Positions 9,134 to 60,187 of a stretch of DNA of 64,000 bases are shown here, in pieces (the stretch's first letter is position 1; the number at the start of each line of letters is the position of its first letter). Origin of the DNA: a virus; IMG/VR virus record IMGVR_UViG_3300009506_000006, positions 40,171 through 104,170 of that record, one strand, 5' to 3'. The translations under genes and the position numbers were made by a program. Below the pieces are notes generated by a model. It saw nothing but the letters and a program-made list of their open reading frames with translations. It was not told the origin of the DNA and made no database searches.

Positions 9134-9300
9134 GGCCCGGCTTCTTCGCTGTCCGGACTCAGAACCGTATAGTAACGGGTTCGATTGTAATATGTGCCAC
9201 CGCCATCCAAGACTTTAGCTATGGCTTCATTTTCATCGACCGCATCGATGAGCACATCCTGAATATGGACTTCTTTGGTACTGACAATAAACTGTGCCAT
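9106..9300 (-). CDS. Hypothetical protein
   Basis: GGGG RBS, co-directional. Confidence 0.6.
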   Translation of the reverse strand: MAQFIVSTKEVHIQDVLIDAVDENEAIAKVLDGGGTYYNRTRYYTVLSPDSEEAGPWSVKRKLS

Positions 9301-9313
9301 TTATTCCCCCTTA

Positions 9314-9892: not shown

Positions 9893-9894
9893 CG

Positions 9895-10372: not shown

Positions 10373-10373
10373 G

Positions 10374-37476: not shown

Positions 37477-37692
37477 TCATATGGCTGTTTCATCATTTCT
37501 GGTGCTATACCATGTAATGTATGGCCTATTTGGATATGACGGATACAAAGGCACATAGTACGGCGTTACTGGATTGATCGCAATTTCCGACTGATCAGAC
37601 CATTCTTTTCCGCACTGTTTGCAATAGACCTTGCCACACAATGAACAATACTGCACATCTGTATGCAGGCAGTTGTGGTTGCAGTTGTGCAT
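37477..37692 (-). CDS. Small Cys-rich protein
   Basis: CNHNC...CSLCGKVYCKQCG. Confidence 0.55.
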   Translation of the reverse strand: MHNCNHNCLHTDVQYCSLCGKVYCKQCGKEWSDQSEIAINPVTPYYVPLYPSYPNRPYITWYSTRNDETAI

Positions 37693-37695
37693 AGA

Positions 37696-38883
37696 TTACT
37701 CCGCAGCGAATTTGTCAATTTGAATCATGCATGCATACGTGGCATGCCGCAGGGCACGCCATGTGAAGTTTTGCATGACATCGGTATTGATACCGGTTGC
37801 GTTGATGTTATTGCTTTCGAACTTGAACCGGTGGAATGTGAATATGTACGTATTACCAGCGATCACACCACCTTCAGATACCCGGAAACTGATCGAAGAC
37901 TCCGTACCGGCTGCAAACTTGGTGTACAGATCTTTGTTGGATAAATACAGGTTCATAGACCCGGTTACTTCCAACGCGCCTGCACCGAGATCAGCATTAC
38001 CAAGTACACCAATAGCTTTGAGTCCGCGGATATTGTTATTCAGGGTGAAATCCATACCCTGGATGTATACTCCGGACATCAGACTGCCACCTTCGCGTAC
38101 CTGGGCTACGTTAGACACGGAGTTCATGACGTCATTGTTTGTAGCAGTATTGACGGATCCTGAACTCATGGCGCCAGTAGCTACGCTGGTGTCTTTTCCG
38201 ATAAATGTCATGTTGCCGGTCAGGATGCTATTGGCTTGTACATTGAACGTCATCTGGTTGACTTTCATGCCGGTAAACTGAAAATACAGCGCTGGGCTTA
38301 AGTCACCGTGATAACGTTCAATCGAGAAAGACCGCTCGGTCGTTCCATTTCGCATCATGCAGGCATTGATTGTAGCGGTGTTATCAGCTGTCGTTACGCT
38401 GACAGCCGGTGCCGGAGACACCGTGATGTTCTGTGCGGAGGTTTTGGTGGTGATTAGATAATACCCATCATTCAGCGAGTTGGTTGAATTTGCTACTTTA
38501 ATCCACTGGCCAACTGAGAGTGCTGTGAATGGAGAAGTTTCGGATGATGTGATTGTACTGGCGCTGTTGTTGAAGATCAAATCGGCAGTAGCAATACTGA
38601 TTGAAGACCCCCATGTGGAGAACAGCGCTGCTTGCAGAAAATCATCGAAAGCTGCGTATGACAGCTCGAAGTCAAGACCGCCGCCGCACTCAGCTCCAGT
38701 CTGAACTAAGTCAGATACCATGCGGTCGGAACGAATTTCGTTTGATTGGATGTACTCAATGCCATAGTTTAGAGACTCGGCAGTCAACCGAATCTCCGTC
38801 ATATCGGCAGTCGACGGGGTCGTCCCCCAAGTAGCTTCTTCGATATATCGAAGTTGTGTTCTGTTGGCATCAGCTGTGGCCAT
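37696..38883 (-). CDS. Major tail tube protein
   Basis: YIEEATWGTTP...SNEIRSDRMV...GGLDFELSY...FTGMKVN; position before chaperones. Confidence 0.9.
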   Translation of the reverse strand: MATADANRTQLRYIEEATWGTTPSTADMTEIRLTAESLNYGIEYIQSNEIRSDRMVSDLVQTGAECGGGLDFELSYAAFDDFLQAALFSTWGSSISIATADLIFNNSASTITSSETSPFTALSVGQWIKVANSTNSLNDGYYLITTKTSAQNITVSPAPAVSVTTADNTATINACMMRNGTTERSFSIERYHGDLSPALYFQFTGMKVNQMTFNVQANSILTGNMTFIGKDTSVATGAMSSGSVNTATNNDVMNSVSNVAQVREGGSLMSGVYIQGMDFTLNNNIRGLKAIGVLGNADLGAGALEVTGSMNLYLSNKDLYTKFAAGTESSISFRVSEGGVIAGNTYIFTFHRFKFESNNINATGINTDVMQNFTWRALRHATYACMIQIDKFAAE

Positions 38884-38956
38884 GGCTTGTTATCTCCTTT
38901 CCGGCAGTATGACTGCCGGAAATCAGCCCTTGTCATGCTGCAGACATGACAAAGAC

Positions 38957-39009
38957 AAAAAAACGGCAAATGCGTTGGTTAGGACATTGTGCCCGCACGC
39001 ACTGCCGTT
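38957..39009 (-). terminator. Long-stem terminator ending the modification cluster
   Basis: AACGGCA-GTGCGT...ACGCAT-TTGCCGTT followed by a T run. Confidence 0.65.
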
Positions 39010-39043
39010 AGCTGTTGATTAAGTTGTCAGGCCGGTGTGAAGA

Positions 39044-40816
39044 TTAGCTGCTTTGAGATGCAACGACTGGCCGAGTCGGCTGCAATCCCAACCTGCTCAT
39101 GTTCTGAAACACGTTAGCTGCCAGATTCTGTGCGAATTGTTTGTCCGCACATTGCTGCAAGGCTTGTTGCAGACCCGTTAATGCAATAACGCCCTTCTCG
39201 AGCTGAGTCATGGCCAGATAGTACGCGCACTCACACATAAACTCGGGTCTGAAGTTAAATGTGAAATACCCGTAGCCTTCTTTTTTCTGAGCCATTTCCG
39301 TATATCTCTGGACGAATTTGGATGCTCCCTCCACGGCGAGTGTATGGTCCTTAGTCGACCGACCCAGATCGAATGCCGCATACATCAGATCCAGACTGGT
39401 GGGTTCCAGGACCGAGCCGCGATCCAGCCATTCTCTGGCTTTGTCCAGCTTGTTAACTTTCATGTAACGCTTAATCAGCGTGTAATATACAGAACGCTGA
39501 AATTCGTTTTCAGGGATTATGTCGCGATGCTTTGCGTAGATTTCGGCATACTCCAGACATTTGTCTTCATCGTTAAGCCATCCATGATATTGGCTTAGAT
39601 AAAACATCGCTTCGTAATCGTTTGGATTATCTTCCAATCGTTTATTGAGCAGACCCACCGAGCGCTTAAATTTCTTTTTACGCTCTTCAGGACTAACGTC
39701 GTATCCGTAATGATTGAGTACTAGTTCGACCAGATGCCTGCGTTCACCTTCAACGATTGCTTTGTTATGCACGATGTTAATATAGTGCACGCAGCCTTTG
39801 CGGAATAACCGTGTAGGCGTAAGCGTCGCCATCATTTTTCCGCCTTGGTAATCTCGCAACGCCGGACATATTCCGTTAGCCGTGGTCTCTTTCAGAAACT
39901 TACGGATTTCGTTTGGTGCAGCTCCATCGAGAACCAACTCTTCGTCTGCATCGATCTGAAACAGCCAATTACCAGTACAATATTCCATGCATTTATTACG
40001 TGCCTTGGAAAAATTGATCTGTGGTCCGAACTCAGTTTCCACGAAATATTCTTTTAAGTTGTCCGGTTGATAAACCCTGGCGCCGAAGTTGCGACAGATT
40101 TCCATGCTGTTATCGGTTGAACCTGTGTCAAGCACCACCAATTCATCAGCTAATGGCACAATCGACTGCAAACAGCGCGGCAAATTCTTAGCTTCATTAC
40201 GCACGATCATCATGAAGCTGATTTTCACGCCTTTGTGATTGGATTTTTTAACCAGCTTAGCTTCTTTATCGAACAGATCTTTGATCTGGTGCAGATGATA
40301 CATGTACAAACCGGGCATGATATAAAGCTCATAGCCCGCACTGACTAAGCGTTTGTGATAGTCGTTATCGACTCCCATAAATACGTTTTCTGTAAAGCCA
40401 TTAACTTTTTCCCAAGCCTCTTTATGCGTTAGAATAAAGAAGCCTGACATTGGCTTGTCTGACTGCGGCTTAATTAACTGTGAACCGTACTGCCGATATA
40501 ACTCATTGGAATATTTAATATGACCGCGGATGTCATCATGAGCACTTTGCGGTGTGAATTTCTGATCATCGCACCAAGTTCGATTCGTTACGCCTGAGAT
40601 CCAGCCGGCTTTGTGCCCGACTTGCTCGATGGCGTCCAGGCACATCTCGTACCACTGTGGACGCAGCAGCAAGATATCCGAATCCAGAAACAGCACCCAG
40701 TCGTCGACTTTGGCCATGGCCTGATTGTACGCCTTGCCGATATTGCCGGGCTCGTACGGAACGATCACATCAATTTTGTGGTCTCTGGCTTTATGCGAAT
40801 CAATTTTCCAGGCCAT
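39044..40816 (-). CDS. Two-domain GT-A/GT2 glycosyltransferase with C-terminal TPR-like region (likely start MAWK)
   Basis: FLDSDI; MIVRNEAKNLPRCL...VLDTGSTD...FSKARN...QIDADE; HYGY; helical TPR-like tail. Confidence 0.9.
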   Translation of the reverse strand: MAWKIDSHKARDHKIDVIVPYEPGNIGKAYNQAMAKVDDWVLFLDSDILLLRPQWYEMCLDAIEQVGHKAGWISGVTNRTWCDDQKFTPQSAHDDIRGHIKYSNELYRQYGSQLIKPQSDKPMSGFFILTHKEAWEKVNGFTENVFMGVDNDYHKRLVSAGYELYIMPGLYMYHLHQIKDLFDKEAKLVKKSNHKGVKISFMMIVRNEAKNLPRCLQSIVPLADELVVLDTGSTDNSMEICRNFGARVYQPDNLKEYFVETEFGPQINFSKARNKCMEYCTGNWLFQIDADEELVLDGAAPNEIRKFLKETTANGICPALRDYQGGKMMATLTPTRLFRKGCVHYINIVHNKAIVEGERRHLVELVLNHYGYDVSPEERKKKFKRSVGLLNKRLEDNPNDYEAMFYLSQYHGWLNDEDKCLEYAEIYAKHRDIIPENEFQRSVYYTLIKRYMKVNKLDKAREWLDRGSVLEPTSLDLMYAAFDLGRSTKDHTLAVEGASKFVQRYTEMAQKKEGYGYFTFNFRPEFMCECAYYLAMTQLEKGVIALTGLQQALQQCADKQFAQNLAANVFQNMSRLGLQPTRPVVASQSS

Positions 40817-40848
40817 GTAATACCTTTCTTCAATTGTTTGATATAAAT

Positions 40849-40877
40849 TTCTTACTTTAGGTAAGATATTACACAAA
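40849..40877 (-). promoter_or_regulatory. Operator palindrome and probable promoter upstream of the GT2-TPR gene
   Basis: Perfect TCTTAC-TTTAG-GTAAGA at 40850..40866; weak -35 (TTGTGT). Confidence 0.65.
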
Positions 40878-40900
40878 AATATGCAATGAATCAAGACATT

Positions 40901-41068
40901 TTACGTAGCGATGATTTCTGCACGCGTTTTAGCGATCAGCATTTCTGTGGCTTGTTTCAGTCCGACTTGGTCAACCAGTATATCAAACAGCCGCCGGTTC
41001 TCATCCAGTAGCTGTTGATAGGCTACATTGATACCATTCGGACCGAGCTCTTTACAGTAGTCTCGCAT
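40901..41068 (-). CDS. 55-aa hypothetical protein (below ORF track cut-off)
   Basis: Manual translation MRDYCKELGPNG...RAEIIAT*. Confidence 0.45.
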   Translation of the reverse strand: MRDYCKELGPNGINVAYQQLLDENRRLFDILVDQVGLKQATEMLIAKTRAEIIAT

Positions 41069-41071
41069 GGC

Positions 41072-41704
41072 TTAAGACCTCATAATAAAAAATCCGTTGC
41101 CACGGTGGTATTCTTTCCAGTTGTCCTTGAACCCGGGGATGTGATAATGCATCTCAATGTTGTAATACCCGCTATCTTCGAATCGCTTCAACCACCAGCC
41201 CTCTGACTCGGCAATGATGTGCGTGACGTCCTGGTGATACTGCGCAATGCGGTACTTGCCCTGATCTCCGAACGGGACGATAAACATAGCCTGCTGTGCT
41301 TTGTTGCTGAGTTGTCTAAGCACGTCGCATAGAGACTGATATGGAATATGCTCCAGAGTGTCCTTGGCGAACACTATACTAGCTGGTGGACAGTATTCAA
41401 TGTTTTCAAATAAAAATGGCTTGGCATCTGATGGTGCTTTGGAAAGAGCATAACGCGATATATCGATTCCCCAGGCATCGACTGAAAGACAGCGCAGCGC
41501 ACGTACCAGGAAACCCTTAGCGCATCCGAAATCAATGACTGATTTGCCGGGGAACATAGCTTTGAGCTGGCGAGCCATTGGCATGGTGCGCTGCGGCATC
41601 CAACGATAGTTTTCGTACAGACTGACTCCGGCTTTAATACCATGCTCGAAATACGTCTGATCAAATCTGCTTCTGTAATTTTTCAGATCGTTATGCAAAT
41701 TCAT
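41072..41704 (-). CDS. Class I SAM-dependent methyltransferase
   Basis: VIDFGCAKGFLV, GIDIS, KDTLEHIP. Confidence 0.9.
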   Translation of the reverse strand: MNLHNDLKNYRSRFDQTYFEHGIKAGVSLYENYRWMPQRTMPMARQLKAMFPGKSVIDFGCAKGFLVRALRCLSVDAWGIDISRYALSKAPSDAKPFLFENIEYCPPASIVFAKDTLEHIPYQSLCDVLRQLSNKAQQAMFIVPFGDQGKYRIAQYHQDVTHIIAESEGWWLKRFEDSGYYNIEMHYHIPGFKDNWKEYHRGNGFFIMRS

Positions 41705-42653
41705 TGAATTCAGTTTCCATCAGTAAGTCTTCCAGCAGATCCTGTTGCTTGGAATACTTGCAGTAACTGCAATTATATTGCAGAGCTGTTGGACGAAGAT
41801 TACTATAGTATTGAAATATCTCGCTGCTGTGACACAGGCGCGCCTGCGTATTAATTTGCTTATTGTTTTCTACCGCCAACTCCGCACTTGGACAGGGATA
41901 TACCCAACCATCGGTGTATAGCGCAGGCTTAATTAGATGAATATAGCAGTTGTTATTGCGGCGTGTCAGTGTGGTATTAAAATCTGATAGGAATAAATTT
42001 GTTGAGTTAACTTGCTGCAGTTTGCGCTTGATGTGCGCCATCTGACGTTTAATTAACTTAGTGTCCATGATGCAGTCGGGTGCTACACGGCAAGTAATTT
42101 GATGTTCATCAGCAAACTGCGCGATTTTTTCAATATTGTCATCCGACAGATCATTCCAGATATAACAAAAGCTGGCTCGGCTGCGATTTTGCACAGCTTG
42201 CACAGCAGATCGTAGATCTTTGGCAGGTCTGTAGTCCAATGTGTTCAAGGATATTCTTACCCAGCTAATGTCATCGAGAAATTCTGCAATGTGGCTGATT
42301 GCGAGCCCGTTAGTGATAAGCCCGATTTTCATTTCGAGCTTGTCAATGAAATAATCTAAACATTTAGCAATATGCGGATACAGAGTTGGTTCTCCGCCTC
42401 CGGTGAGTTCTATGGCACGCACACCTATGTCATGGAACTGTTTCACACCTTCCATATAAACGCTAGGACTGATATCCGTAACTAGATCGCTGCGGTTTTT
42501 GAAACAACAGTGTAAGCAGTTTAGTTGACAGCGATGTGTAGGCATGGTGTGCACCATAATCGGAGACACGCAGCCAGATTGCAGATCTTTGAGCTTATCC
42601 AGATGTTTGAGCAGCTTGGCTGTGTTGGATGTAATGGAATAAGACTGGTTCAT
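41691..42653 (-). CDS. Radical SAM enzyme with SPASM/twitch-like C-terminus
   Basis: CQLNCLHC, TGGGEPTL, ITNG, C...DGWVYPC...CSYC. Confidence 0.9.
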   Translation of the reverse strand: MNQSYSITSNTAKLLKHLDKLKDLQSGCVSPIMVHTMPTHRCQLNCLHCCFKNRSDLVTDISPSVYMEGVKQFHDIGVRAIELTGGGEPTLYPHIAKCLDYFIDKLEMKIGLITNGLAISHIAEFLDDISWVRISLNTLDYRPAKDLRSAVQAVQNRSRASFCYIWNDLSDDNIEKIAQFADEHQITCRVAPDCIMDTKLIKRQMAHIKRKLQQVNSTNLFLSDFNTTLTRRNNNCYIHLIKPALYTDGWVYPCPSAELAVENNKQINTQARLCHSSEIFQYYSNLRPTALQYNCSYCKYSKQQDLLEDLLMETEFNEFA

Positions 42654-43225
42654 GAATAGTATCTTTCAATAGCTTTGCGCTCTGCTCTAAGTAGTTTATT
42701 GCGGAGCGGCTGGGTTAAACCAGTATCGATATCACGTTCCGTGTCATTGACCAAGACTTCTGGGGCCATGACATCGTATCCCCAAATTCGCAGTAATTTG
42801 TTTAACTGCGGTGTCAGGTTTTCTTGACGCAAAATATAGTCACAATGTGGTGCGTAATTATCGTATAATTCAGTCACATATCCAGGCCACTTTTTAATGA
42901 CATTTTTAATAAATCCTTGGAATGTATCTGACACGCATAGCACATCTAATGGAAAATCATTACGCCAGCTGGTTTTAATACGATAACGATAGTGCGATCG
43001 ATACCATTCAATTGGATGTCTGATCGTGCAGAATGTCTCACATTGTTTAAGAATATCTGGCTCGACTTCAAACGGCCGGCAATGAGTTTGTCTTTGCCAT
43101 GAGTCTATTACTATTCCGACTTCTTCTGATTTTACTGGCAATCGTTTACGAATTACGTAACGAACATATGAGCCGCCGGTTTTTGGAATGTGAAAGAACA
43201 GTTTATTATCGAATTTAAGCGCCAT
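42650..43225 (-). CDS. Sulfotransferase (family 2-like)
   Basis: FFHIPKTGGSY (5'-PSB loop), IRHPIEWYRSHY (3'-PB). Confidence 0.85.
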   Translation of the reverse strand: MALKFDNKLFFHIPKTGGSYVRYVIRKRLPVKSEEVGIVIDSWQRQTHCRPFEVEPDILKQCETFCTIRHPIEWYRSHYRYRIKTSWRNDFPLDVLCVSDTFQGFIKNVIKKWPGYVTELYDNYAPHCDYILRQENLTPQLNKLLRIWGYDVMAPEVLVNDTERDIDTGLTQPLRNKLLRAERKAIERYYS

Positions 43226-43754
43226 AATATTCTGACAAGAATTTAATCAGCCGGCTGTTGTATGTATTTGCAATTGCCACACCGCGTTTAATGGACATGC
43301 TGGGCCGCATGCGCTGCAGGCTTTTAGCGACTTCATATGGATTGCGAAATATTGATATGATATGCAAATTTTGGAGATGCGGCAGGTACAACCGGATAGT
43401 TAGTGTAGTACGCGGTTCTTTCCAACCCCAGATAGGTTCTCGGGTATTTCTGGCGATAGTGTCAATGATTTCCTGCTTAAACTTTGGATACTGTTGCAGG
43501 ATTTTTTCCTCGGCGGGTGGTTGGAATATATTGCCGCCAGCTGCAAACAGGATCCTTTCATTTAGATCTTTAAACTCCAGATTTTCGTAATAACCCAGAG
43601 GATTGGCGATATCACCGGCAAGCAGATGTTCGCCGATATGCACACCAGCTCGCTGCAAACCCAGTCCAACCAAAGACGTCGCGCTTCGGGGCATACCAAG
43701 CACAACGATAGATTTGACAACGGTTGGTATGTTCTGTGCATCTTCCCCTGGCAC
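43215..43754 (-). CDS. Sulfotransferase (family 3-like)
   Basis: VLGMPRSATSL, WGWKEPR, FRNPYEVAKSL. Confidence 0.85.
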   Translation of the reverse strand: MPGEDAQNIPTVVKSIVVLGMPRSATSLVGLGLQRAGVHIGEHLLAGDIANPLGYYENLEFKDLNERILFAAGGNIFQPPAEEKILQQYPKFKQEIIDTIARNTREPIWGWKEPRTTLTIRLYLPHLQNLHIISIFRNPYEVAKSLQRMRPSMSIKRGVAIANTYNSRLIKFLSEYYGA

Positions 43755-43796
43755 CCTGCGTCCCCTTCTTGTTTGTTGTAAAACTACAAACTTGAA

Positions 43797-44117
43797 TCAA
43801 TCATCGTACAACCCGTCCATGTAATTATGGATTTTCTTGATCATATATTCCACCAAACCAAGACAGAACAGTGTTGAGTTTTCGCCGAACCAGTAGTCAA
43901 ATATATAATTGAATGCCTCATCCTCATTTTCCGGTTCGGCTTCCACAGTGTAAACCATGACGAGATTTTTGACTTTACCTGCATCATAATGATGTATCAA
44001 TAGATCAACTGCGTCATGTACGACTTCGCTGGGCTTCGGTCTCAATTGAATGACGTTGTTCGACTTCTGCTCTGGTTCCTCGCAGCCATTGGACGAATTC
44101 ACGGTATTCTCTGTCAT
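43797..44117 (-). CDS. Acidic hypothetical protein
   Basis: GGAG RBS, co-directional. Confidence 0.6.
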   Translation of the reverse strand: MTENTVNSSNGCEEPEQKSNNVIQLRPKPSEVVHDAVDLLIHHYDAGKVKNLVMVYTVEAEPENEDEAFNYIFDYWFGENSTLFCLGLVEYMIKKIHNYMDGLYDD

Positions 44118-44152
44118 AGTTTGTCTCCGTCATACTGCCTGAACGATCTGGA

Positions 44153-44728
44153 TTATTCTTGGCCATTGCTCTTTTTTAGTACCTCGAGTGGATCGATAAG
44201 TTCGAATTGAATTGGATCCTGTTCCGATGTATCATTCAAACTTCCGTCTTTGCTGGCTTTTTTGTTGCCTTTTTTATTTGACATAACTTCAATCCAACTA
44301 CCGCCTACTTTTTTTTGCAGCTTTTGCAAATCTAAAAGCTTTTTATGCAGTTCTCGATCATATGGCAACTTGAATGCACGTGGCTCCATCTTTCCGGAAT
44401 ACGTATAACGTTTAAATAAATTAAAAACATTGCGTGCCTGCTGTTGATTATCTGGTTTAATATCGCACCAGAAATAAAACGCACCTGGATTTTGGTTGTC
44501 TGGTTCGCTGATTGTCAAAGATATGATACGACTTTTCTCCGGGATCGCTTGCTCTGCCGGCCATCCTTTTAAGTCAGGCAGTGAATAGAAAAATGAAATT
44601 GAAAACCATAGTGCTATGGCTATACCGACACATTTATAAACAATGCGTCCTTTAGAATAAATGACTGACCAGCATAGAAAAAACATTACTAGCAGATAGA
44701 CAAACATGATTGCAGCGGTTGATATCAT
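44153..44728 (-). CDS. Membrane protein (two N-terminal TMs), third gene of the MotA/MotB-like module
   Basis: Two hydrophobic helices then a soluble domain; ATGA overlap with the upstream gene. Confidence 0.7.
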   Translation of the reverse strand: MISTAAIMFVYLLVMFFLCWSVIYSKGRIVYKCVGIAIALWFSISFFYSLPDLKGWPAEQAIPEKSRIISLTISEPDNQNPGAFYFWCDIKPDNQQQARNVFNLFKRYTYSGKMEPRAFKLPYDRELHKKLLDLQKLQKKVGGSWIEVMSNKKGNKKASKDGSLNDTSEQDPIQFELIDPLEVLKKSNGQE

Positions 44729-45318
44729 GGGCTTGCAGTTTCCTTGATTATCACCAATGGTTTAAAAGTCGGATCAAACATCATAATATCACCATTGGCG
44801 TTCATGGTGAACCGTGTTGCTGTTTCTTCTTGCCACTGTGAAGTTAATGTAATGTCTTTGTAGAAAACTGTCGAAAACGACGGATTGATTTTATCGATCG
44901 TTGCGATAACATGAGTGGGCTCTTTTTCGCGTTTGGTATATGCGTGCACATTTAGAGTCCATTCCCCGGGAATAAATCCTCTGATCGTGGTTAATTCCTG
45001 GTTGCGGGGACATTTTACAACCAAACCGTCCGGCATGATGATAGTATCATTGATATATCCAAGATCGTCTCTGTCGATGTGCGCAAAATTTTTTTCTAGA
45101 CGACGAAACCATACAACTCCTCCAAGCGGATCTTCGAGCCAAGTGTCGATATCGTCTGTATTGTCATTTGGCCAAGTTACCGTAATGATATACTCAGCCT
45201 TGTTTTTCATGTTTGCTTTTTGAGTTTGCGGCCGGATTAACATGAAAGATATGCAAAACAAAATTGTTATGCCAAGCAACATGTTAAATAAGAGATCTAG
45301 AAATCCTGTATTCCGCAT
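44725..45318 (-). CDS. MotB/ExbD-like single-TM protein
   Basis: TGFLDLLFNMLLGITILF: Asp in TM helix; soluble domain without OmpA motif. Confidence 0.65.
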   Translation of the reverse strand: MRNTGFLDLLFNMLLGITILFCISFMLIRPQTQKANMKNKAEYIITVTWPNDNTDDIDTWLEDPLGGVVWFRRLEKNFAHIDRDDLGYINDTIIMPDGLVVKCPRNQELTTIRGFIPGEWTLNVHAYTKREKEPTHVIATIDKINPSFSTVFYKDITLTSQWQEETATRFTMNANGDIMMFDPTFKPLVIIKETASP

Positions 45319-45767
45319 GACAGCCCCATCTCCAGGTTATAAATTTGAAGCTTGAGCATGAATGAACAGATAAGTCCAGCTGCTGTTGTGTATAGTGCTG
45401 TTCCCATACCATGCGCCATATTTGCAATTGCCGCCTGCATACTATTAATGTTTGCAGCATCGATCTTGCAGAATACGGTGTCCAATGTGAACAAGAAACC
45501 AAACACGGTCCCGATCATACCAAGAGTCACGAACTTTTCAGCAAACCATTTGGCTGTATTGAGTTGACTTGCAGCAGTTGTTTTAATTTGATATGTTAAG
45601 ATACCGAGCTGTATAGAGAATATGATAAACAAGGTGAGGATCACGAAGCTGAGCTTTGTTAGATCTGCCTGGTTGACTTTTTCGAATAGGCTGTAATAGT
45701 ACATCAAAAAAAGTCCGACACCTATCATGCACATACAGAGCCACCATTTCAGAAAATATCTTTTCAT
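45297..45767 (-). CDS. MotA/TolQ/ExbB proton channel family protein
   Basis: Four hydrophobic helices; TLGMIGTVFG and MGTALYTTAAGL. Confidence 0.85.
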   Translation of the reverse strand: MKRYFLKWWLCMCMIGVGLFLMYYYSLFEKVNQADLTKLSFVILTLFIIFSIQLGILTYQIKTTAASQLNTAKWFAEKFVTLGMIGTVFGFLFTLDTVFCKIDAANINSMQAAIANMAHGMGTALYTTAAGLICSFMLKLQIYNLEMGLSCGIQDF

Positions 45768-46465
45768 GGTTCACCTTCATACGGGACAATGCCAATCTCA
45801 ATAGCACGTTGCATATTGATCCACTCAGTTTTGCGTTCCCATACTTCCCATTGCTCCTTGTCTTTAAGATTGGTTCTGTCCATCAGGATGTTGAAATACT
45901 GATCACGCAACAAATCAAACAACGCAGTCTGGCTTCTGAACTCAGAGCTTGATCCTTGAAGAGACGAACTTGCTTCGTGTATCATAAATACCGTGTTTGC
46001 AACCGCTGTGCGATTATCGAACGCTAGGAACACAGGAACCGCGGCACTGGCAATAAGACCGTTGGCGATAGCATGAAATTTAAAACCGTCCTTTTGGGCT
46101 TGTTGAATCAAACCGTACAACGCGAAGCCGACAAAGGCACTGCCTCCATACGAGTTGATAAACACTTCTGCTTCCGTAATGCCTTTAAGTTTTAAAATCG
46201 AAATATCGTTCCAGAAATCTTTATCTTCGAAGTCTAAATTATCGTAGATTTTCATGAACGCTTTGTCATTTGCAATGAATGTCATGCTCGAGAGCTTTGC
46301 TTCAAGCGGATCTTTTTTGCATTCGCATTGCTCCGATGTCGCATCTTTGTCGGAAGTTTCAGTTTCGTAAACTGTGAATAAGCCTCGATTCGCAGCATCA
46401 GCATGACCGTCGTGAACAGTCATCAAACATATAACGATCGATAATGCCAACAATGTCGTTTTCAT
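45764..46465 (-). CDS. ClpP-like peptidase with signal peptide
   Basis: FINSYGG, GLIASAA (Ser), FMIHEAS (His); N-terminal MKTTLLALSIVICL...HADA. Confidence 0.8.
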   Translation of the reverse strand: MKTTLLALSIVICLMTVHDGHADAANRGLFTVYETETSDKDATSEQCECKKDPLEAKLSSMTFIANDKAFMKIYDNLDFEDKDFWNDISILKLKGITEAEVFINSYGGSAFVGFALYGLIQQAQKDGFKFHAIANGLIASAAVPVFLAFDNRTAVANTVFMIHEASSSLQGSSSEFRSQTALFDLLRDQYFNILMDRTNLKDKEQWEVWERKTEWINMQRAIEIGIVPYEGEP

Positions 46466-46484: not shown

Positions 46485-46883
46485 TTACTCGATTTCATCA
46501 CGTTGAAATTCCACACTTACATTGTGCACACGCCACCCGCTATGTTCCCCAAGATCTGTTACACTCGGATCGCGGCAGACAAGTCCGTTGAAGCTAGCGC
46601 TTCTGAATATGGCGGATGCCGTGTCAATATACCCGCGTGCCGTGCGCGTACCGGTGTTGACCGGCACATAGATATTGATAGAAATCAGACCGATATAACG
46701 GCGTAAATTGGTCGAACCGCCGAGCGATATTTTGCGTGAGAGACCAGATACCACCTGCAGTTCAACCCAGGCGCTATCGGCTGGTGGATCGAAATCAACG
46801 TTGGCATATTTGATAGCTGTCGTGGATCCCCAATTGGTGGCGAACCGTTGTTCAATATATTTGGCTTCGTTTGAATAGCTCAT
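46485..46883 (-). CDS. Tail terminator protein
   Basis: IKYANVDFDPP...WVEL...GLISINIYVPVNTGT. Confidence 0.85.
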   Translation of the reverse strand: MSYSNEAKYIEQRFATNWGSTTAIKYANVDFDPPADSAWVELQVVSGLSRKISLGGSTNLRRYIGLISINIYVPVNTGTRTARGYIDTASAIFRSASFNGLVCRDPSVTDLGEHSGWRVHNVSVEFQRDEIE

Positions 46884-49202: not shown

Positions 49203-49555
49203 ATGCGGACCTCGTAATCAGATCGCGTCAAAAGCGTGCGTCCGGTTGAGAACACCCACAATCGATAGCGATTTGTCATGCAACAATTAATGTATTCGCG
49301 CAATTTAATGCCGTCAGATCCTTGGCGTATAATTCCACGTCCGAACCGTTTCACGAACCTCTCGCCATTGGCATGATCGATCAGCACGTCGTGCCGAGGC
49401 AGGATGTTGATCGACGGGACAAATGAAAAGCGAACAATCGCATCCGCATTCACAGATTTCCATGTGTTTTCTTTGCCGTCTTCGTCATACTGTTTTATGA
49501 CGACGCCGTCTGCAGTCTCGAGCTCCCATGCATAGACTGTGTTAGGCTTCAACAT
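49199..49555 (-). CDS. Hypothetical protein (likely start MLKPN)
   Basis: YAWELETADG..IKQYD. Confidence 0.65.
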   Translation of the reverse strand: MLKPNTVYAWELETADGVVIKQYDEDGKENTWKSVNADAIVRFSFVPSINILPRHDVLIDHANGERFVKRFGRGIIRQGSDGIKLREYINCCMTNRYRLWVFSTGRTLLTRSDYEVRI

Positions 49556-50735
49556 ACCAGAAATCTCCGAACGTTTTGATAGTCTTATCAGCGAAATATT
49601 CGTCGACTGCTTGCTTGACGCCAGGCCATGAATAGTCATGGCCGATAATTAATTGCTTCGTGATAGGTCCCCACATTTGCAAGTCCGCCTTGCAGCCTTC
49701 GTAACTATGGTCACCATCTATGAAGACCATATCGATTTCGCTGTTCGCAAAAATTTTAAACGCATCTTGGCTGTCCATCTCAAGCAACCGCAGATTATTG
49801 AACATGCCGACATTATCGAGAAACGCCTGCTTGATTTTATCCGGATGCTTGGCTTCGATATGTGCAGCCTGACGTTCGTCAAGCGACCCCATGAAATGAT
49901 CGACAGCATACACAGTGCCTTGCCTGCATCCAGACAGCAGCGCGTGCGTGGAGCGGCCTTTCCAGACACCGATTTCGACGATTATCTTCATCTGCTTGGC
50001 TTTTTTGTACAGCCAATCTAATTCCGGTCCGGTCATCCAGCCCGGAATATCATTGCAATAATGCGTGTCACGCGCAATTTCATTCAAATGCGTTGACAAA
50101 CTGACAATATGACTGCCGACATGCCCAAGCTCGATTGTCGGATCTGCCCATATTTCTATGCCAGCCAAATTACAACGATGACAAAAACTCAAGTCTTCAC
50201 CGAGTTGCTCGTGATTAGGCATGGTCCAGTGATTAAACGGATATCCGTATTGCTCTACCATGCTTAAACTCAATACTTGACTGATCAAATCTTTGCGCAG
50301 CAGCATGTATCCGGTAGCCAGGCCTGCCACTTGGAACGGATGATCTGGAATATCATGTGACTTGATACCGGCAAAGGCATTATGCGCCATATTGTCAGAC
50401 AGATCTTCCGAGAATACCAATGGCCGGTATTGGGTATCTGATCTGGCATAGTAAATCCCACCGGCTACAGGCTTGTCCAGTGCGATCAATTTCATGATGC
50501 CGTTTTCTGGCGATACGATATCGGCATCGATAAACATCAGATAATCACACTGTTGTTCTTTGGCCTGCTGTATAATGTAATTTCGCTGGCTTGACAGCAG
50601 CGCCCCGCGCCGATAGAACGTATTGACCTGGTACCCATTTTCAGCCATGTGGATGCATGCTGTTGATAGCGATGTCACGAACTGGCTGTCGACCTGACTG
50701 TAATGTGGAATACCCACCAAGAGCTTCTTGTTCAT
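49542..50735 (-). CDS. GT-A glycosyltransferase fused to class I methyltransferase
   Basis: FIDADI, ATGYMLL, GEDLSFC; VEIGVWKGRST, FIDGDHSYE. Confidence 0.9.
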   Translation of the reverse strand: MNKKLLVGIPHYSQVDSQFVTSLSTACIHMAENGYQVNTFYRRGALLSSQRNYIIQQAKEQQCDYLMFIDADIVSPENGIMKLIALDKPVAGGIYYARSDTQYRPLVFSEDLSDNMAHNAFAGIKSHDIPDHPFQVAGLATGYMLLRKDLISQVLSLSMVEQYGYPFNHWTMPNHEQLGEDLSFCHRCNLAGIEIWADPTIELGHVGSHIVSLSTHLNEIARDTHYCNDIPGWMTGPELDWLYKKAKQMKIIVEIGVWKGRSTHALLSGCRQGTVYAVDHFMGSLDERQAAHIEAKHPDKIKQAFLDNVGMFNNLRLLEMDSQDAFKIFANSEIDMVFIDGDHSYEGCKADLQMWGPITKQLIIGHDYSWPGVKQAVDEYFADKTIKTFGDFWYVEA

Positions 50736-50743
50736 ACGTTCCA

Positions 50744-50772
50744 TTCTTACCGAGAGTAAGAATTTTGTCAAT
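50744..50772 (-). promoter_or_regulatory. Promoter with perfect operator upstream of the GT-methyltransferase gene
   Basis: TTGACA-16-TAAGAA; TCTTAC-CGAGA-GTAAGA at 50745..50761. Confidence 0.7.
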
Positions 50773-50781: not shown

Positions 50782-51273
50782 TCAAGTTTCGTCATAACTG
50801 AAGGTCAATGTCTCGGCTGACAATGTTCCCGGGTTAGCCGTGCTGGCTACACCCATCTGCAAGCGCAGGAAGTCGCCTTTATACCCGGTCCCGGTATATG
50901 GTCCGGCGTTGTAGGTAGCCAGATTAATAGAACTTCCAGCCGTAGCTCCAAACACATCAGCGCCGGATATATCCGCATCTGTCTGAGTCTGGAAACTTGT
51001 GTGAGTATCGTAATCAACGGATACGCCAGTACCGAATCCACTGGATCCGTCTGTATACGCCGCCAAATTTTGGATATCCACACTGGGGGCGGAGTTAAAG
51101 TAAAACCGAAGCTGCTTGGTATAACTCCAGTCCTCGCCTCCTGCAGGGATCTGCAGCCGGTTGCTGGTGTCCACCGTGGTTTCATTGGCTGACTTGAAGC
51201 GCACGGTACCGGAGGTCTTGTCGACTCCGGTGTTAGTGTCTGTGACTTCATGAATCTGTACATCTGCGGCCAT
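50782..51273 (-). CDS. Probable virion structural protein
   Basis: Ala/Thr/Gly/Ser-rich beta-type sequence within the structural operon. Confidence 0.65.
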   Translation of the reverse strand: MAADVQIHEVTDTNTGVDKTSGTVRFKSANETTVDTSNRLQIPAGGEDWSYTKQLRFYFNSAPSVDIQNLAAYTDGSSGFGTGVSVDYDTHTSFQTQTDADISGADVFGATAGSSINLATYNAGPYTGTGYKGDFLRLQMGVASTANPGTLSAETLTFSYDET

Positions 51274-51384
51274 GAGTATAATCTCCCACTTAATTTGGAT
51301 GAATCACGGCAGCGCAGCATTGCAATCTAACCGCATTCAATTTGAATTATATGACGACAGCAAACTGTGCATGCCTGCTGTCAT

Positions 51385-53544
51385 TTAAGTTGACGTTGCC
51401 GTCAAGCCAGGTCGTGTTATTGTTGCCGTAAAACCAGGCAATTCTATAGCTGCTGTGGCACTTGGCCTGCTAATGGACGCTGTCAGACTTTCTTTGGCTT
51501 TTGTCCATGCCAGGCTTAAGACAGTAATTGCGTCAAGCAAGGTCGTAATTCTGGATGTGACCTGTGCCGTAATAGCATCGAGTCCAATGAATTTGCTGAG
51601 TGTGCCGTACGCTATGGCATCCAATGCCGTGGTCTTAATTCGGCCATTATAAAGGCTAGCATCGATTGCCACGGTCTTGGTTAGACCTGTTTTATTAAGC
51701 AGGCTGTCTATGCCTGTTACAACTGTCATGGCTTTTCTCAGCGCAGCGTCGATCATGGTGTTGATGGTGTTAACCACATACAGGTGCGCATCCAACTGCA
51801 TGGTGTTGATGATTTGAGACTGCTGCAGCATGGCATCGAATGCCAAATCTTTGGTGACCTGCCCGATTAACAGCGCTTCGATCAGAGCCGAAATTGTTTT
51901 CGAGCCTGTATCAGACAGGATTGCGTCCAGAGAAGCCGTGATGGTTAGGCTTTTGTTGAGCAGCGCGTTCAGATCAACTGTGGCAATGACATTATTGGCG
52001 TTTAGCAGCGTATCGAGACTGACTGTGCGTGCATTCATTTTAAATAACACCGCATCGATGTCGGATGTCACGGTTAATCCAACTGCATGTAGCAGTGCGT
52101 CGATGTTGGACTCCGCAGTTAACCCGAGTTTATTCAACAGCGCGTCTAAGCTGGCGGTTGTTGCCATGCCGGCTTTGTTCAGCAGCGCGTCTATACTGGA
52201 CTCTACGGTTAGACCGCTATTTTGCAGGATCGCATCGATTGCAGCAGTTTTGGTTAAGCCTAGTTTGTTAAGCAGTGCGTCGATTGAGCTTTGCACGTAA
52301 CCGGCTGCCACTTCGTATAGCACGGCATCAAGGCTGTTGGTGATAGTCATACCGGCTTGATTGAGCAGTGCGTCGATTGACAGGCTGGTGGTAATGCCGA
52401 CTTTGTTTAGCAGTGCATCGATGCTGTTGGTAATCGTCGTGCCGGACTTGTTTAACAGTGCGTCCACATCGGTTGTAGTTGTGATCAGCTGCTTGAGCAG
52501 CGCGTCCAGAGACAGTGTGATCGGGATCGAGCCTTGCAGGTAAGCATCGAATGACAGTGTCGATGTAAGTGTCTTCTTGAGCAGTGCATTCAGGTCAACT
52601 GTCTGAGTATATGCAGCTGCTGATATCAGTATTGCATCTAAATCGACAGTTTTGGTTGACCCGACTTTATTAAGCAGCGCGTCCAGATCTGGTGTTTTGC
52701 TGTAAAGTTTGGACAGGATCGCATCGGCATCTGGCGTTTTGAGATTGCCGGCTTTGTTAAGCAACCCATCGATATAAGACGTCTTGAGATTGCCAGTCTT
52801 ATTAAGCAGCGCATCGATATCCGGTGTCTTGAGGCTGCCGACTTTGTTAAGCAGCGCATCCAGATCCGGTGTCTTGCTGTAAGTCTTAGACAGGATTGCA
52901 TCGGCATCTGTCGTCTTCAGATTGCCAGTCTTGTTGAGCAGCCCGTCGACATCTGGTGTTTTTAGGTTGCCGGTTTTGTTAAGCAGCCCGTCAATCTTCG
53001 GTGTTAGCGTGTATGTTGTAGCCTGAGTAGCCGTGAAAACTTGCGGGTATGTGTTGGCGCCGTAGGTCGCAGATGGCGGTGCCAGGACTGTAGCGGCATA
53101 GATCCGAAAGTAGTATGTTGTAGCTTGTGTGACATTCGCCGAGACCGGCACGATAGCGAAGTCTTCTTCATTGACATCGTTTTTGCCAAACTGTGTTGCG
53201 TATGTACCGCTTTCACGATACACACCGCCGTCCAAGGCAGCATCTGCGACTTTAGCGCCGGCTACTGTATTGCCTTCCGTGGCTTGTCCATTGGCATAAT
53301 TAAAATGCGCTGACGGTCCCAATGAGAACCAGTCGGATTGGTTTAGTGAATACTCCAGATACCAGACCGCAGCTGTGCTGTTGGCTCCACCGGTTTCGAC
53401 CAGCTCAACACGCAGCCTGATAATACTGGTGTTGTCTGCCAATATTGGCTTGGCGTTTTCGCCGGTCAGCGGAGTCGTGGGCTCAACAGCGTCGTTAGCG
53501 TACCAGCGCCAATCGCCTTGTACGGGTATGTAAGATGATGGCAT
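51385..53544 (-). CDS. Repeat protein with about 34 tandem 14-16 aa units (x-T-x-x-(L/I)-D-A-L-L-N-K), probable fibre/decoration
   Basis: Counted units from PKIDGLLNK to TLLDAITV; about 175-aa N-terminal domain. Confidence 0.75.
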   Translation of the reverse strand: MPSSYIPVQGDWRWYANDAVEPTTPLTGENAKPILADNTSIIRLRVELVETGGANSTAAVWYLEYSLNQSDWFSLGPSAHFNYANGQATEGNTVAGAKVADAALDGGVYRESGTYATQFGKNDVNEEDFAIVPVSANVTQATTYYFRIYAATVLAPPSATYGANTYPQVFTATQATTYTLTPKIDGLLNKTGNLKTPDVDGLLNKTGNLKTTDADAILSKTYSKTPDLDALLNKVGSLKTPDIDALLNKTGNLKTSYIDGLLNKAGNLKTPDADAILSKLYSKTPDLDALLNKVGSTKTVDLDAILISAAAYTQTVDLNALLKKTLTSTLSFDAYLQGSIPITLSLDALLKQLITTTTDVDALLNKSGTTITNSIDALLNKVGITTSLSIDALLNQAGMTITNSLDAVLYEVAAGYVQSSIDALLNKLGLTKTAAIDAILQNSGLTVESSIDALLNKAGMATTASLDALLNKLGLTAESNIDALLHAVGLTVTSDIDAVLFKMNARTVSLDTLLNANNVIATVDLNALLNKSLTITASLDAILSDTGSKTISALIEALLIGQVTKDLAFDAMLQQSQIINTMQLDAHLYVVNTINTMIDAALRKAMTVVTGIDSLLNKTGLTKTVAIDASLYNGRIKTTALDAIAYGTLSKFIGLDAITAQVTSRITTLLDAITVLSLAWTKAKESLTASISRPSATAAIELPGFTATITRPGLTATST

Positions 53545-54163: not shown

Positions 54164-54901
54164 TTATTCAATTACGTCAACTAGTCCCCAAACTCTGGCT
54201 TGATCCGCATCGAACCAAGTTGTTTTGGTTTCCAGTGCTTCCCACTGGTCTTTCGACAATTTGGAATTTTGTACCAATTTGCCGATATAGCGGTCGCGTA
54301 GCAGTCCCATCAGCTCGTTCTGCGACCGGATATCCGAGGCGGTTTCACGTCCCGGCCATTTCCACAGAGCAGCTTCGTGCACCATGAAAATCGTTCCGGG
54401 TGCGGCCAGGCGATTGTTGCATACAGCAAATACCGGAACTGCTGCGCTGGCGATAATGCCGGACGCATGGGCCGTGACACGAAATCCCTTACGCTGTGCA
54501 CGTTCTATTTCGTCGGCTAATGCCAACCCTGAAAACGCATCGCCTCCAGATGAATTGATAAATAAATTGATATCCCGAATGTCAGTCATGTGATACAGAT
54601 AGCATAAATCGTTCCATAGACGCGTTACGTCAGCAACCGACAACCCGGAAAAAATCTTGACAAAGGCTTGATCCTTGGCGATGAAAGACAGTTGAGACAA
54701 AGACCCTTCCGGATTGGGAACCTCCATTGATTTGTTGATTTTTTGACTTCCGCTATCAGTGGAACTGACTTCAACATTGGCAGGTTCGCTGGCTTGGACC
54801 TTGACGATGACTTCTTGCGGTTGACGTTTTTGAATCGGAACAGTTGCCGCACATCCCACAAATAGACACAATGCACCGATAAAGATAATGAGTTGTTTCA
54901 T
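54164..54901 (-). CDS. ClpP-like peptidase, predicted lipoprotein
   Basis: LCLFVGC lipobox; FINSSGG, GIIASAA, FMVHEA, WGLVD. Confidence 0.85.
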   Translation of the reverse strand: MKQLIIFIGALCLFVGCAATVPIQKRQPQEVIVKVQASEPANVEVSSTDSGSQKINKSMEVPNPEGSLSQLSFIAKDQAFVKIFSGLSVADVTRLWNDLCYLYHMTDIRDINLFINSSGGDAFSGLALADEIERAQRKGFRVTAHASGIIASAAVPVFAVCNNRLAAPGTIFMVHEAALWKWPGRETASDIRSQNELMGLLRDRYIGKLVQNSKLSKDQWEALETKTTWFDADQARVWGLVDVIE

Positions 54902-57900: not shown

Positions 57901-58401
57901 GCCCCCTGTGGCTGTAATTGCCAGAGCGTAGGCATACCCGACATAGAAATTCTGAAACGTACAACTCTGGACCGTAACATTGCTGGTCGTTCCAGTTATA
58001 ATCAGGCCCTGTCCATTTCCGCCGGTTATACCCGATCCATCAAACGTGACATTATCCCAAATCGTGGTGGTTCTGTTTGTAACTTGAGCCGTATAATTAA
58101 TGCTTCCAACTCCACTGATCTGCCCATTTTGCCATTTTTGATTATTAGCCTGGACGGTCAAGATAGAATCGGCATCAAGTTCTACTCCAGAATAGGTACA
58201 ATCACATAGATCAAAAACATTATCTGCCCCGAGTGTTGAGGATACTGCTTCTAAATCGGTCGCTCCAGTCCACGAACCTTCGTAAGAGCATGACGTGCTG
58301 TTATACTCAACGTTGCTTGCGCCGTCGCGGATATAGTATGTCGCTCCCCACCCATTAGCGGCAAATAGCAGGATACCTAATATGTAGATATATTTTCTCA
58401 A
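54928..58401 (-). CDS. Exported right-handed beta-helix protein, two tandem modules
   Basis: Signal peptide; many PbH1-like (I/V)xNN repeats; each half ends in NP.L...DAGTPTGISGQTDYY...IDxGACEW. Confidence 0.8.
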   Translation of the reverse strand: MRKYIYILGILLFAANGWGATYYIRDGASNVEYNSTSCSYEGSWTGATDLEAVSSTLGADNVFDLCDCTYSGVELDADSILTVQANNQKWQNGQISGVGSINYTAQVTNRTTTIWDNVTFDGSGITGGNGQGLIITGTTSNVTVQSCTFQNFYVGYAYALAITATGGGTNLIDDNQFTNCLQGARLQNMASSATVSNNIATDCGKGIVLSGNVPNTTVIGNTITGWGWYSSLAFELQAEEPNGNFTVGQTVTGSSSGASATIVAQVDNGTSGTLYLKSQSGEFDNAETITDPITGSATTTDPQDDSCYDCSGYGIHLTQVYGNGIVLDDNDLSSPNGNCDGIEVSFNVSQTPSTSFTVKNNTVNITGNCGDTGIVTDLDAAQTGVVVEDNTVINARKSGFWIVGGTNGIWRRNKASVIEAAASSRKAGFVLYCYDLDNGRDIMSGNVFHNNVVDGAPNGFDLYGQNGTYYVGAVSIYNNLLINIYEVGIKFESYGSSSTVAKNNIVYLDDSDLDAQYVSAASANHQPSAGNINANGYYGGDGDDNWTWGATTDIDDLSEWQSASSQDTTNSFLSNPSLSGYCPDSPTDPGVDAGTPTGISGQTDYYENPIVNTIDIGACEWQALYYLRYCASNGDGTGQLCGEGAGYAWNNFHNAFDALSAGDKLHVNKGDTFTEDYDAYVDKDGTALNPITVTTYGSGARPILKLSTDRTTFITFNSCDYWHIEGIEFDANNKTNTQALVFAASVDPVNDFELNDCAIKNSTNYAVSLSNAAHENVVIDGCEFSGNTNNGVMFYGTGHQLKNSTFTNNGNMAIVYSGTAVIDNNTFVGDWGNNYVIKGWSVGNITSISVNNNTISTEGSSCPAYSTDCIDLDLSPNTVAPTVSVTNNTINICSGGYGDLGIVVTASETEGGTVNITDNSVVNSGEGGISVIYATSGEVARNYVENPGAVVDHVGNGYGLTINSQNFNVYGNIIKNPSVSGIHLRDASNIIANNTIIYTVDRRVGYDDYGIRVADAGTDSNTIINNIIWGDKMDYYVFVDADAGDGGANTFNHNLYYGMASPKWTSNSVDYTSISAWNGESAAEIIVSDEASANPSLDSNYCSDSSTDPSVDAGTPTGISGQTDYYGKEPWHTIDTGACEWWDSASSGVLFNGVTIK

Positions 58402-58460
58402 TTACTCGTAACTCCTGTTCGATATATACCGGTCATGGTTGCAGGAATTGGAGGTTCACC
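58385..58460. repeat. 76-bp direct repeat, copy 1
   Basis: One mismatch versus 60112..60187. Confidence 0.95.
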
Positions 58461-60128: not shown

Positions 60129-60187
60129 TTACTCGTAACTCCTGTTCGATATATACCGGTCATGGTTGCAGGAGTTGGAGGTTCACC
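60112..60187. repeat. 76-bp direct repeat, copy 2
   Basis: One mismatch versus 58385..58460. Confidence 0.95.

Follow-up and report, generated by a model that had tools for sequence, protein, structure and literature searches.

Why would the tail module of a phage carry enzymes for the transfer of sugars, sulfate and methyl groups? This question is raised by a stretch of viral DNA of 64,000 nucleotides (nt), positions 40,171 to 104,170 of IMG/VR record IMGVR_UViG_3300009506_000006, which we refer to as the window and by whose own numbering coordinates are given unless another contig is named. In the window, genes for a glycosyltransferase (GT), a methyltransferase (MT), a radical S-adenosylmethionine (SAM) enzyme (rSAM) and two sulfotransferases (ST_a and ST_b) lie between those for the tail terminator and the major tail tube protein. 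The complete record is a single contig of 107,865 bp with 46% G+C, is rated 100% complete and derives from an uncultured tailed phage whose sequence occurs in marine-sediment runs and partly in soil and sludge runs (four studies); marine sediment may be the source of the phage. A blastn search of positions 37500-45000 against 50,697 phage records returned no match. A sequence-only reading of the window had described the five enzyme genes as a glycan pathway embedded in the tail operon and directed at virion proteins or the host surface. All five are present, on the minus strand as is every gene of the region, and our analyses lead us to regard the cassette, with a little more belief than doubt, as a set of protein-glycosylation enzymes that work in the cytoplasm and modify the particle proteins of the phage itself.

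The genes on which this reading depends are the following:

37696..38883, minus strand: major tail tube protein (PF18906 E 2e-53, phrog_290 E 1e-79)
39044..40816, minus strand: glycosyltransferase of GT2-like + GT2 + TPR architecture, 590 aa, the core of the cassette (Pfam and PHROG matches)
41072..41704, minus strand: class I SAM methyltransferase (MT), 210 aa (Methyltransf_23 E 1.8e-7, phrog_27380 E 2.6e-31)
41691..42653, minus strand: radical-SAM enzyme (rSAM), 320 aa, with a twitch- or partial-SPASM-like C-terminal Cys motif (PF04055 E 6e-14)
42650..43225, minus strand: sulfotransferase ST_b, 191 aa, compact Sulfotransfer_2 type (assigned by family and model)
43215..43754, minus strand: sulfotransferase ST_a, 179 aa, compact Sulfotransfer_3 type (assigned by Pfam and fold)
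46485..46883, minus strand: tail terminator (phrog_179 E 8.7e-26; PF13554 on homologues in related contigs), the upstream edge of the insertion site

The glycosyltransferase and its tailoring enzymes

The open reading frame (ORF) of the GT spans 39044-40894, and the recorded protein begins at the ATG at 40816. Glycos_transf_2 (PF00535) matches it at E 1.3e-19 in two stretches and PHROG glycosyltransferases match both halves, which bears out the earlier description of a double GT with TPR. Both GT-A domains carry the invariant DxD, and D289-x-D291-E292 is invariant in 13 relatives. Attached to them is a predicted C-terminal TPR or helical-repeat domain: TPR_14 matches at E 4e-4, which is below its cut-off, designed TPR proteins match residues 407-542, and the alignment to the solved structure 7msk extends to residue 505. 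Searches against the PDB gave GmaR at E 7e-17, SunS at E 2e-14 and 7msk at E 2e-11, matches by which the TPR-linked GT domain is nearest to the protein and peptide glycosyltransferases GmaR, SunS and a ThuS-like enzyme; a PDB sequence search with the first GT domain gave nothing significant. GmaR is a flagellin O-GlcNAc transferase. The closest relatives of the GT are 33-43% identical to it, and many of them add a third domain at the N terminus, of the GT-D fold known from the glycosylation of serine-rich-repeat adhesins.

The two sulfotransferases are different enzymes, as had been proposed, and are unrelated to each other. ST_a matches Sulfotransfer_3 at E 1e-6 (29.6 bits, cut-off 27). It retains a G-M-x-R-S-x-T-S loop and an R137-x-P139...S145 motif, and its family alignment keeps G20, R23, K112, P114 and R115, with R137, P139 and S145 near-invariant. 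A PDB sequence search with the ST_a profile gave nothing significant. Its AlphaFold2 model (pLDDT 93.4) has a compact sulfotransferase fold, for which the best solved matches are the tyrosylprotein sulfotransferases TPST1/2 (Z 9.5, root-mean-square deviation 3.8 Å over 143 residues); Stf0, OLS-ST and Stf1 are also among the structural matches, with other sulfotransferases and P-loop kinases at Z 7-8. ST_b has no Pfam match of its own and no match in a tblastn search of cultured phages. An exhaustive representative search found 1154 representative relatives of ST_b, of which a word-indexed search gave one. Among the 59 relatives scanned, 29 match Sulfotransfer_2 (PF03567) and three are fused to adenosine 5'-phosphosulfate (APS) kinase, which makes the sulfate donor 3'-phosphoadenosine 5'-phosphosulfate (PAPS). 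All residues invariant in the family (H12, G18, H48, R69, P71 and S77) are kept in ST_b, including an H-I-P-K-T-G-G loop resembling the 5'-phosphosulfate-binding (5'-PSB) motif, an R69-x-P71...S77 motif resembling the 3'-phosphate-binding (3'-PB) motif, and H48. Its profile matches heparan sulfate 6-O-sulfotransferase at E 0.004 and its Atlas model reaches TM 0.8 to Sulfotransfer_2 proteins. Both families are largely viral and uncharacterised, and at 179 and 191 aa ST_a and ST_b are unusually compact (sulfotransferases typically have ~250-300 aa). The loss of catalytic residues, which had been named as grounds for rejecting the pathway, was not observed, the DxD being kept in both GT domains and the family motifs in both sulfotransferases.

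Members of the ST_a family also occur in other settings. In contig L023 (10001-10651) a 216-aa member directly follows a split gene for DNA polymerase III alpha and has a Mom-like gene in its vicinity; compact members of this family may have other acceptors in other phages. In the 572-kb JGI contig L024, possibly a megaphage, an ST_a homologue is part of a cluster of ~10 genes (5159-12500) that includes genes for GT2 and GT1-like enzymes, a polysaccharide deacetylase, a methyltransferase and an epimerase of nucleoside diphosphate (NDP) sugars.

The rSAM had been described as radical SAM/SPASM-like, and its radical-SAM part was confirmed. Its core, which starts at residue 38, has the CX3CX2C motif; PF13186 (SPASM) does not match the protein and the full seven-Cys SPASM motif was not seen in it. 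The C terminus has CX12GX4C and three more Cys, and because these make five rather than seven we term it twitch- or partial-SPASM-like; judged from the motif, a single auxiliary cluster of the twitch type is more likely. An AlphaFold2 single-sequence model reached a pLDDT of 43 and was not used. The enzyme belongs to a large viral family, some members of which carry SPASM; a scan of viral contigs found no close relatives. Its best solved matches are the peptide maturases YydG (E 2e-5) and 5v1q (E 6e-5), and its structural neighbours include fusions to a cytidylyltransferase and to GT1. The MT, a class I enzyme in accordance with the earlier description, makes up a conserved pair with it. The rSAM orthologue of Synechococcus phage SynMITS9220M01 (32% identity, E 2e-57) shares an overlap with a methyltransferase gene (38% identity), after which comes a glycosyltransferase, all of them within an ADP-heptose gene cluster. 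Pelagibacter phage HTVC008M has the same pair followed by a carbamoyltransferase and a gene of the UDP-glucose dehydrogenase family. In both phages the methyltransferase after the rSAM orthologue is 37-38% identical to the MT. Since the orthologous pairs are located in sugar clusters, and given the GT1 and cytidylyltransferase fusions, we place the rSAM in sugar rather than peptide chemistry.

In the direction of transcription, the neck genes (Ad1, Hc1 and Neck1) are followed by the tail terminator (46485-46883), by genes for an exported ClpP-like protein, a MotA/ExbB-like protein, an ExbD-like protein, a protein with two transmembrane (TM) segments and a 106-aa protein (46465-43797), and then by ST_a, ST_b, rSAM, MT, a 55-codon ORF, a promoter-like site, the GT2-GT2-TPR gene and the tail tube, downstream of which are the tail chaperones, the tape measure and a J-like protein. 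The enzymes are consequently between terminator and tube, as the sequence-only reading had them; they do not adjoin the terminator itself, as the five genes at 43797-46465 intervene. The overlapping or near-abutting ORFs that it reported were confirmed: ST_a and ST_b overlap by 11 nt, ST_b and rSAM by 4 nt and rSAM and MT by 14 nt, which suggests translational coupling of the four.

Recurrence of the arrangement beside the tube gene

A survey of gene neighbourhoods, which had been proposed as a check on the pathway, found 13 further contigs in which a PF18906 tube gene is immediately preceded by one or more GT genes, with the terminator on the other side of the GT in nine of the nine contigs in which that flank is visible. 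The tubes that follow the GT in these related contigs are 36-53% identical. The cultured relatives Dinoroseobacter phage R5C and Pseudanabaena phage Pan1 have no cassette, their terminator-like and tube genes abutting with a gap of 19 nt. Such recurrence in many independent contigs means that the clustering of these genes is not due to chance.

Sulfotransferases recur at the GT/tube site in about eight contig types. ST_a homologues are found beside the GT in L003, L007, L033, L035, L040 and L019, and those of L003, L007 and L035 lie between terminator and GT. The same interval holds an rSAM, a methyltransferase and a GT4-like gene in L002 and L008 (with a SPASM match in L008), and a methyltransferase and a hexapeptide acyltransferase in L004. 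The cassette of L006 has a different sulfotransferase (231 aa), a GT4-like gene and an N6/N4 DNA methylase, and the overlapping contigs L033 and L032 have ST_a, a methyltransferase, a Sulfotransfer_1-type enzyme and a TOD1-like GT. As classified by sequence matches, the variable genes at the site thus appear nearly always to be of glycan-tailoring types. The accessory enzymes of these contigs are orthologous neither to those of the window nor to one another, and their being analogous without orthology indicates that the site has repeatedly recruited sulfotransferases, methyltransferases and rSAM enzymes. In an unrelated contig (L019/L020), homologues of GT2-TPR, GT-N, ST_a and ST_b are again found in company, each encoded by a gene of its own.

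A module of different surroundings was observed in L040 (3289-8165), where ST_a, a GT1-like gene and GT-N are followed by a protein with a ConA-like lectin domain (Laminin_G_3 E 7e-22) and by a 1261-aa protein. That module adjoins likely receptor-binding proteins and not the tube.

Candidate acceptors and rival explanations

Two further sets of features bear on what the enzymes may act on, namely the sites around the GT start and a second locus with a GT-methyltransferase fusion (GT-MT), which had been noted earlier at 49542 and which we confirmed, over 49542-50771, as Methyltransf_24 with a GT-like N-terminal half:

40850..40895, minus strand: promoter-like TTGATT-17-TAATAT overlapping a perfect TCTTAC-N5-GTAAGA palindrome, 33 nt upstream of the GT start
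40900..41067, minus strand: 55-codon ORF between MT and GT, read from the sequence; putative, its reality uncertain
43797..44117, minus strand: 106-aa acidic protein, 42 nt upstream of ST_a; membership of the cassette uncertain
49542..50744, minus strand: GT-A-like domain fused to a Methyltransf_24 methyltransferase (Methyltransf_24 E 2.6e-19, phrog_1574, phrog_34859)
50745..50761, minus strand: TCTTAC-N5-GTAAGA palindrome within a promoter-like TTGACA-17-AAGAAT, directly upstream of the GT-MT gene
50782..53544, minus strand: a 719-aa repeat protein and a 163-aa protein just upstream of GT-MT, candidate acceptors

The palindrome occurs five times in the window (at 14822, 15670, 23929, 40850 and 50745; four perfect), with 0.08 occurrences expected, and a generic scan for promoters and terminators showed no excess over the shuffled expectation. 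As two of the five lie directly upstream of the two GT genes, these genes seem to share a regulator with early-region promoters. The GT-like half of GT-MT has a weak GT2 match, and relatives of the fusion are located near GT-N homologues in L014, L015 and L017. The 719-aa protein (51385-53544, minus strand) has a globular N-terminal part of ~180 aa, ~35 degenerate repeats of ~15 aa around a D-A-L-L-N-K-x-G-x-x-K-T consensus, and a Thr-rich tail; it is possibly a head or neck fibre. Neither it nor the 163-aa protein has a family match. Among all ORFs of the genome these two proteins have the most Ser/Thr-rich C-terminal tails, and the 163-aa protein has the highest overall Ser + Thr fraction (0.245). 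We consider them candidate acceptors of the second locus because of those tails and their position immediately upstream of GT-MT. The 719-aa protein has no homologue in related loci (searched over as much as 10 kb to either side of the GT) and is therefore not a conserved partner of the main GT.

The genome holds exactly three GT2-like domains. All six enzymes are free of TM-like segments (KD-19), and the whole 107,865-bp genome has no match to GtrA, to an initiating phosphoglycosyltransferase (Bac_transf) or to Wzx. No NDP-sugar epimerase, nucleotidyltransferase or APS kinase was found in it either, so the uridine diphosphate (UDP) sugar, PAPS and SAM must come from the host. Together with the similarity of the TPR-linked GT domain to protein glycosyltransferases, these gene contents favour a cytoplasmic protein acceptor over one at the host surface. 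The tail tube is the best candidate, being the sole partner that is conserved next to the GT; it is favoured but unproven, with synteny as its only ground.

On this basis, the following sequence of events can be proposed. The TPR-linked GT2 domain of the 590-aa enzyme would recognise a folded phage protein, most likely the major tail tube protein encoded immediately downstream, and add a first sugar from a UDP-sugar of the host. The N-terminal GT-A domain would then lengthen the glycan, to which relatives may add by means of their third, GT-D domain. The upstream operon would tailor it, the two unrelated, presumably PAPS-dependent sulfotransferases adding sulfate and the rSAM-methyltransferase pair carrying out a radical-mediated sugar modification and a methylation, with UDP-sugar, PAPS and SAM provided by the host. 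The GT-methyltransferase fusion at 49542 probably serves head-proximal proteins, for which the 719-aa repeat fibre and the neighbouring 163-aa protein are candidates. The virion would thereby acquire a coat of acidic glycans that varies from strain to strain. The more specific proposal that the tail tube, and perhaps other particle proteins, bear a sulfated and methylated glycan made by the GmaR/SunS-like enzyme, or in a variant that ST_a sulfates a virion protein directly, is one that we put forward tentatively and with more doubt than belief.

Several observations weigh against glycosylation of the particle. The GT fails the SunS equivalog test, scoring 64.3 bits against the SunS family TIGR04195 (E 9e-18; cut-off 350), and is a distant relative rather than a SunS orthologue. 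Structurally, ST_a is matched best by enzymes that sulfate protein tyrosines, and these are only ~1.5 Z above P-loop kinases. Its family is moreover not tied to one acceptor class, because relatives also adjoin DNA polymerase and Mom-like genes (L023). In L013 the terminator and tube abut and the GT genes are ~10 kb away, which means that adjacency of GT and tube is not obligatory. The promoter-like site that the GT has to itself carries an operator also found at early-region sites, which one would not usually expect of a gene that serves morphogenesis only. The tubes themselves provide little distinction: the Ser/Thr content is 0.19-0.21 in the GT-linked phages and 0.22 in the GT-less R5C and Pan1, no distinctive tail or motif was found in the GT-linked tubes, and only three Ser/Thr columns are GT-specific, a difference confounded by phylogeny. 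The acceptor, the sugar, the sulfation and methylation sites and the rSAM chemistry are deduced. Comparable marine myophage islands, finally, have been published as modifiers of the host O-antigen, itself a guess (PMC7029224).

That last point leads to the rival explanation that the enzymes remodel the host envelope, altering the O-chain of lipopolysaccharide (LPS), the capsule or exopolysaccharide so that superinfection is blocked or adsorption changed. The rSAM-MT orthologues have as neighbours ADP-heptose and UDP-sugar dehydrogenase genes of the sort usual in LPS pathways, which agrees with it, as does the GT having a regulated promoter-like site of its own. We nevertheless think it unlikely, as the phage lacks GtrA, an initiating phosphoglycosyltransferase and a flippase, all the cassette enzymes are soluble, the TPR-GT is most closely related, among characterised enzymes, to ones that modify proteins or peptides, and the GT has been kept long-term in the tail module beside the tube (13 contigs); the operator over its promoter would also suggest repression along with lytic genes rather than expression in a lysogen. 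Of the two targets in the sequence-only reading, then, the coherent glycan module as such is supported by the recurrent synteny and by L019/L020, while the host surface as its site of action is the less favoured. Decoration of the phage's own bases against restriction seems to us very improbable, even though base modification by glycosyl- and sulfo-transferases has been predicted in phages (Iyer et al. 2013, as cited in PMC10829341), one ST_a relative has DNA polymerase and Mom-like genes as its neighbours and the L006 cassette holds an N6/N4 DNA methylase. The GT belongs to the TPR-linked protein-GT group, the cassette is in the tail module and not among replication genes, and no thymidylate-synthase-like hydroxymethylase was found in the phage; a Tet/JBP search of the phage gave no match, but its control failed and the result is uninformative.

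The similarity to SunS and ThuS, which are among the best GT matches, opens another route, in which a SunS-like S/O-glycosyltransferase and an rSAM maturase would modify a small non-virion peptide, as in glycocins or other ribosomally synthesised and post-translationally modified peptides, with the ORF at 40900-41067 between MT and GT as a possible substrate. The best solved rSAM matches, YydG and 5v1q, are peptide maturases and would fit such a role. We find it hard to credit, however, given that neither this small ORF nor the 106-aa protein has a homologue in any related locus (the latter also has no Pfam, PHROG or NCBIfam match), that the rSAM core starting at residue 38 comes with no leader-peptide recognition domain, that the cassette has no exporter or disulfide-forming genes, that the rSAM-MT orthologues are in sugar and not peptide clusters, and that the structural neighbours of the rSAM include cytidylyltransferase and GT1 fusions. 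Only slightly more plausible, and still improbable, is the absence of any common pathway, with the terminator-tube junction serving as a permissive insertion hot spot for unrelated morons. The presence of an unrelated ExbB/ExbD-like and exported ClpP-like module in the same gap, the DNA methylase at the site in L006 and the lack of orthology of accessory enzymes between contigs would all be expected of a hot spot. The overlap of the ST_a, ST_b, rSAM and MT genes, the co-occurrence of the four GT/ST families elsewhere (L019/L020), the nearly constant glycan-tailoring nature of the accessory genes and the conservation of the core GT at 33-43% identity across the group would not.

Neighbouring genes and relation to known systems

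The membrane module in the terminator-tube gap (44153-46465, minus strand) is unrelated to the glycan enzymes and was not found in any related contig examined. Its MotA/ExbB-like protein has three to four TM segments (PF01618 E 6e-7, weak ZorA matches), and the other parts are a ClpP-like protein that bears a signal peptide, a protein with one TM segment whose N terminus is ExbD-like, and a protein with two TM segments. The ClpP-like protein at 45764-46465 (minus strand; PF00574 E 1.7e-14), whose signal peptide was called by eye, has a paralogue of the same fold at 54164-54901 (minus strand; E 2.5e-17). Each has a hydrophobic N-terminal stretch, which KD-19 calls TM-like only in 54164-54901 and which is unusual for a prohead protease. 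A large insertion between the head and neck genes (54928-61921, minus strand) encodes three beta-helix proteins of 1157, 576 and 598 aa; the 1157-aa protein matches PF13229, and two of the three end in the same short motif.

If glycosylation of the particle is real, its consequences would reach beyond this phage. To our knowledge, a few actinobacteriophages are the only phages for which glycosylation of the virion has been demonstrated; in them it alters antibody recognition. The sequence-only reading knew of no sulfated virion glycan pathway in a tailed phage, and our literature search also found none, nor any paper on phage sulfotransferases in structural modules or on a sulfated virion; a sulfated and methylated tube glycan would accordingly be the first instance of a sulfated virion in any phage. 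The arrangement would suggest a second, unrelated virion-glycosylation system, anchored to the tube gene and marked by hypervariable tailoring enzymes, sulfation and radical-SAM chemistry. Surface glycan coats would then be a general, diversifying trait of environmental phages, with possible effects on adsorption, on the charge and stability of particles, on their aggregation on sediment or mucus, and on their escape from recognition by hosts or grazers. The shared rSAM-MT pair would also imply that many of the 'LPS-like' islands of auxiliary metabolic genes in marine phages are virion-glycosylation kits and not modifiers of the host O-antigen. A new interpretation would be needed for the glycosyltransferases that abound among the auxiliary metabolic genes of marine phages, and glycoengineering would gain new enzymes in the compact viral sulfotransferases and the rSAM-MT pair.

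The phage GT resembles GmaR, SunS and ThuS in having a soluble GT-A domain with DxD followed by a helical or TPR domain, a similarity that extends over ~200-280 residues. The identity is only 25-29%, an additional N-terminal GT-A domain is fused in the phage enzyme, and no glycocin precursor, exporter or flagellin gene is found near it. With PAPS-dependent sulfotransferases, ST_a and ST_b share the 5'-PSB and 3'-PB motifs, the invariant His of ST_b, the fold of ST_a and the APS-kinase fusions among ST_b relatives, whereas the phage enzymes are shorter and come from largely viral families. The cassettes of the T4-like cyanomyophage SynMITS9220M01 (gp210-212) and the pelagimyophage HTVC008M, each within a host-recognition cluster, are comparable in having the orthologous rSAM-MT pair, followed by a GT or sugar enzymes, in a hypervariable region near tail genes (PMC7029224). 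Those phages are myoviruses with nucleotide-sugar genes of their own, and no SunS-like TPR-GT or sulfotransferase was present in the stretches examined; modification of the host O-antigen by such cyano- and pelagimyophage cassettes is a published guess (PMC7029224).

The precedent for glycosylation of the virion itself is that of the actinobacteriophages Che8, Corndog and Myrna (Freeman et al. 2023, PMID 37329881, as cited in PMC13313380 and PMC12691614). These systems too have soluble phage-encoded GTs, often with methyltransferases, among or next to structural genes, and their glycans have been reported on capsid and tail-tube subunits. The phage analysed here is of another lineage, with a PF18906 tube and a Nanhaivirus-like tail module, may come from marine sediment and is known from its genes alone. 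In place of the actinobacteriophage enzymes, it has a GT2-GT2-TPR glycosyltransferase of the GmaR/SunS-like kind in a fixed position between terminator and tube, to which two sulfotransferases and an rSAM have been added.

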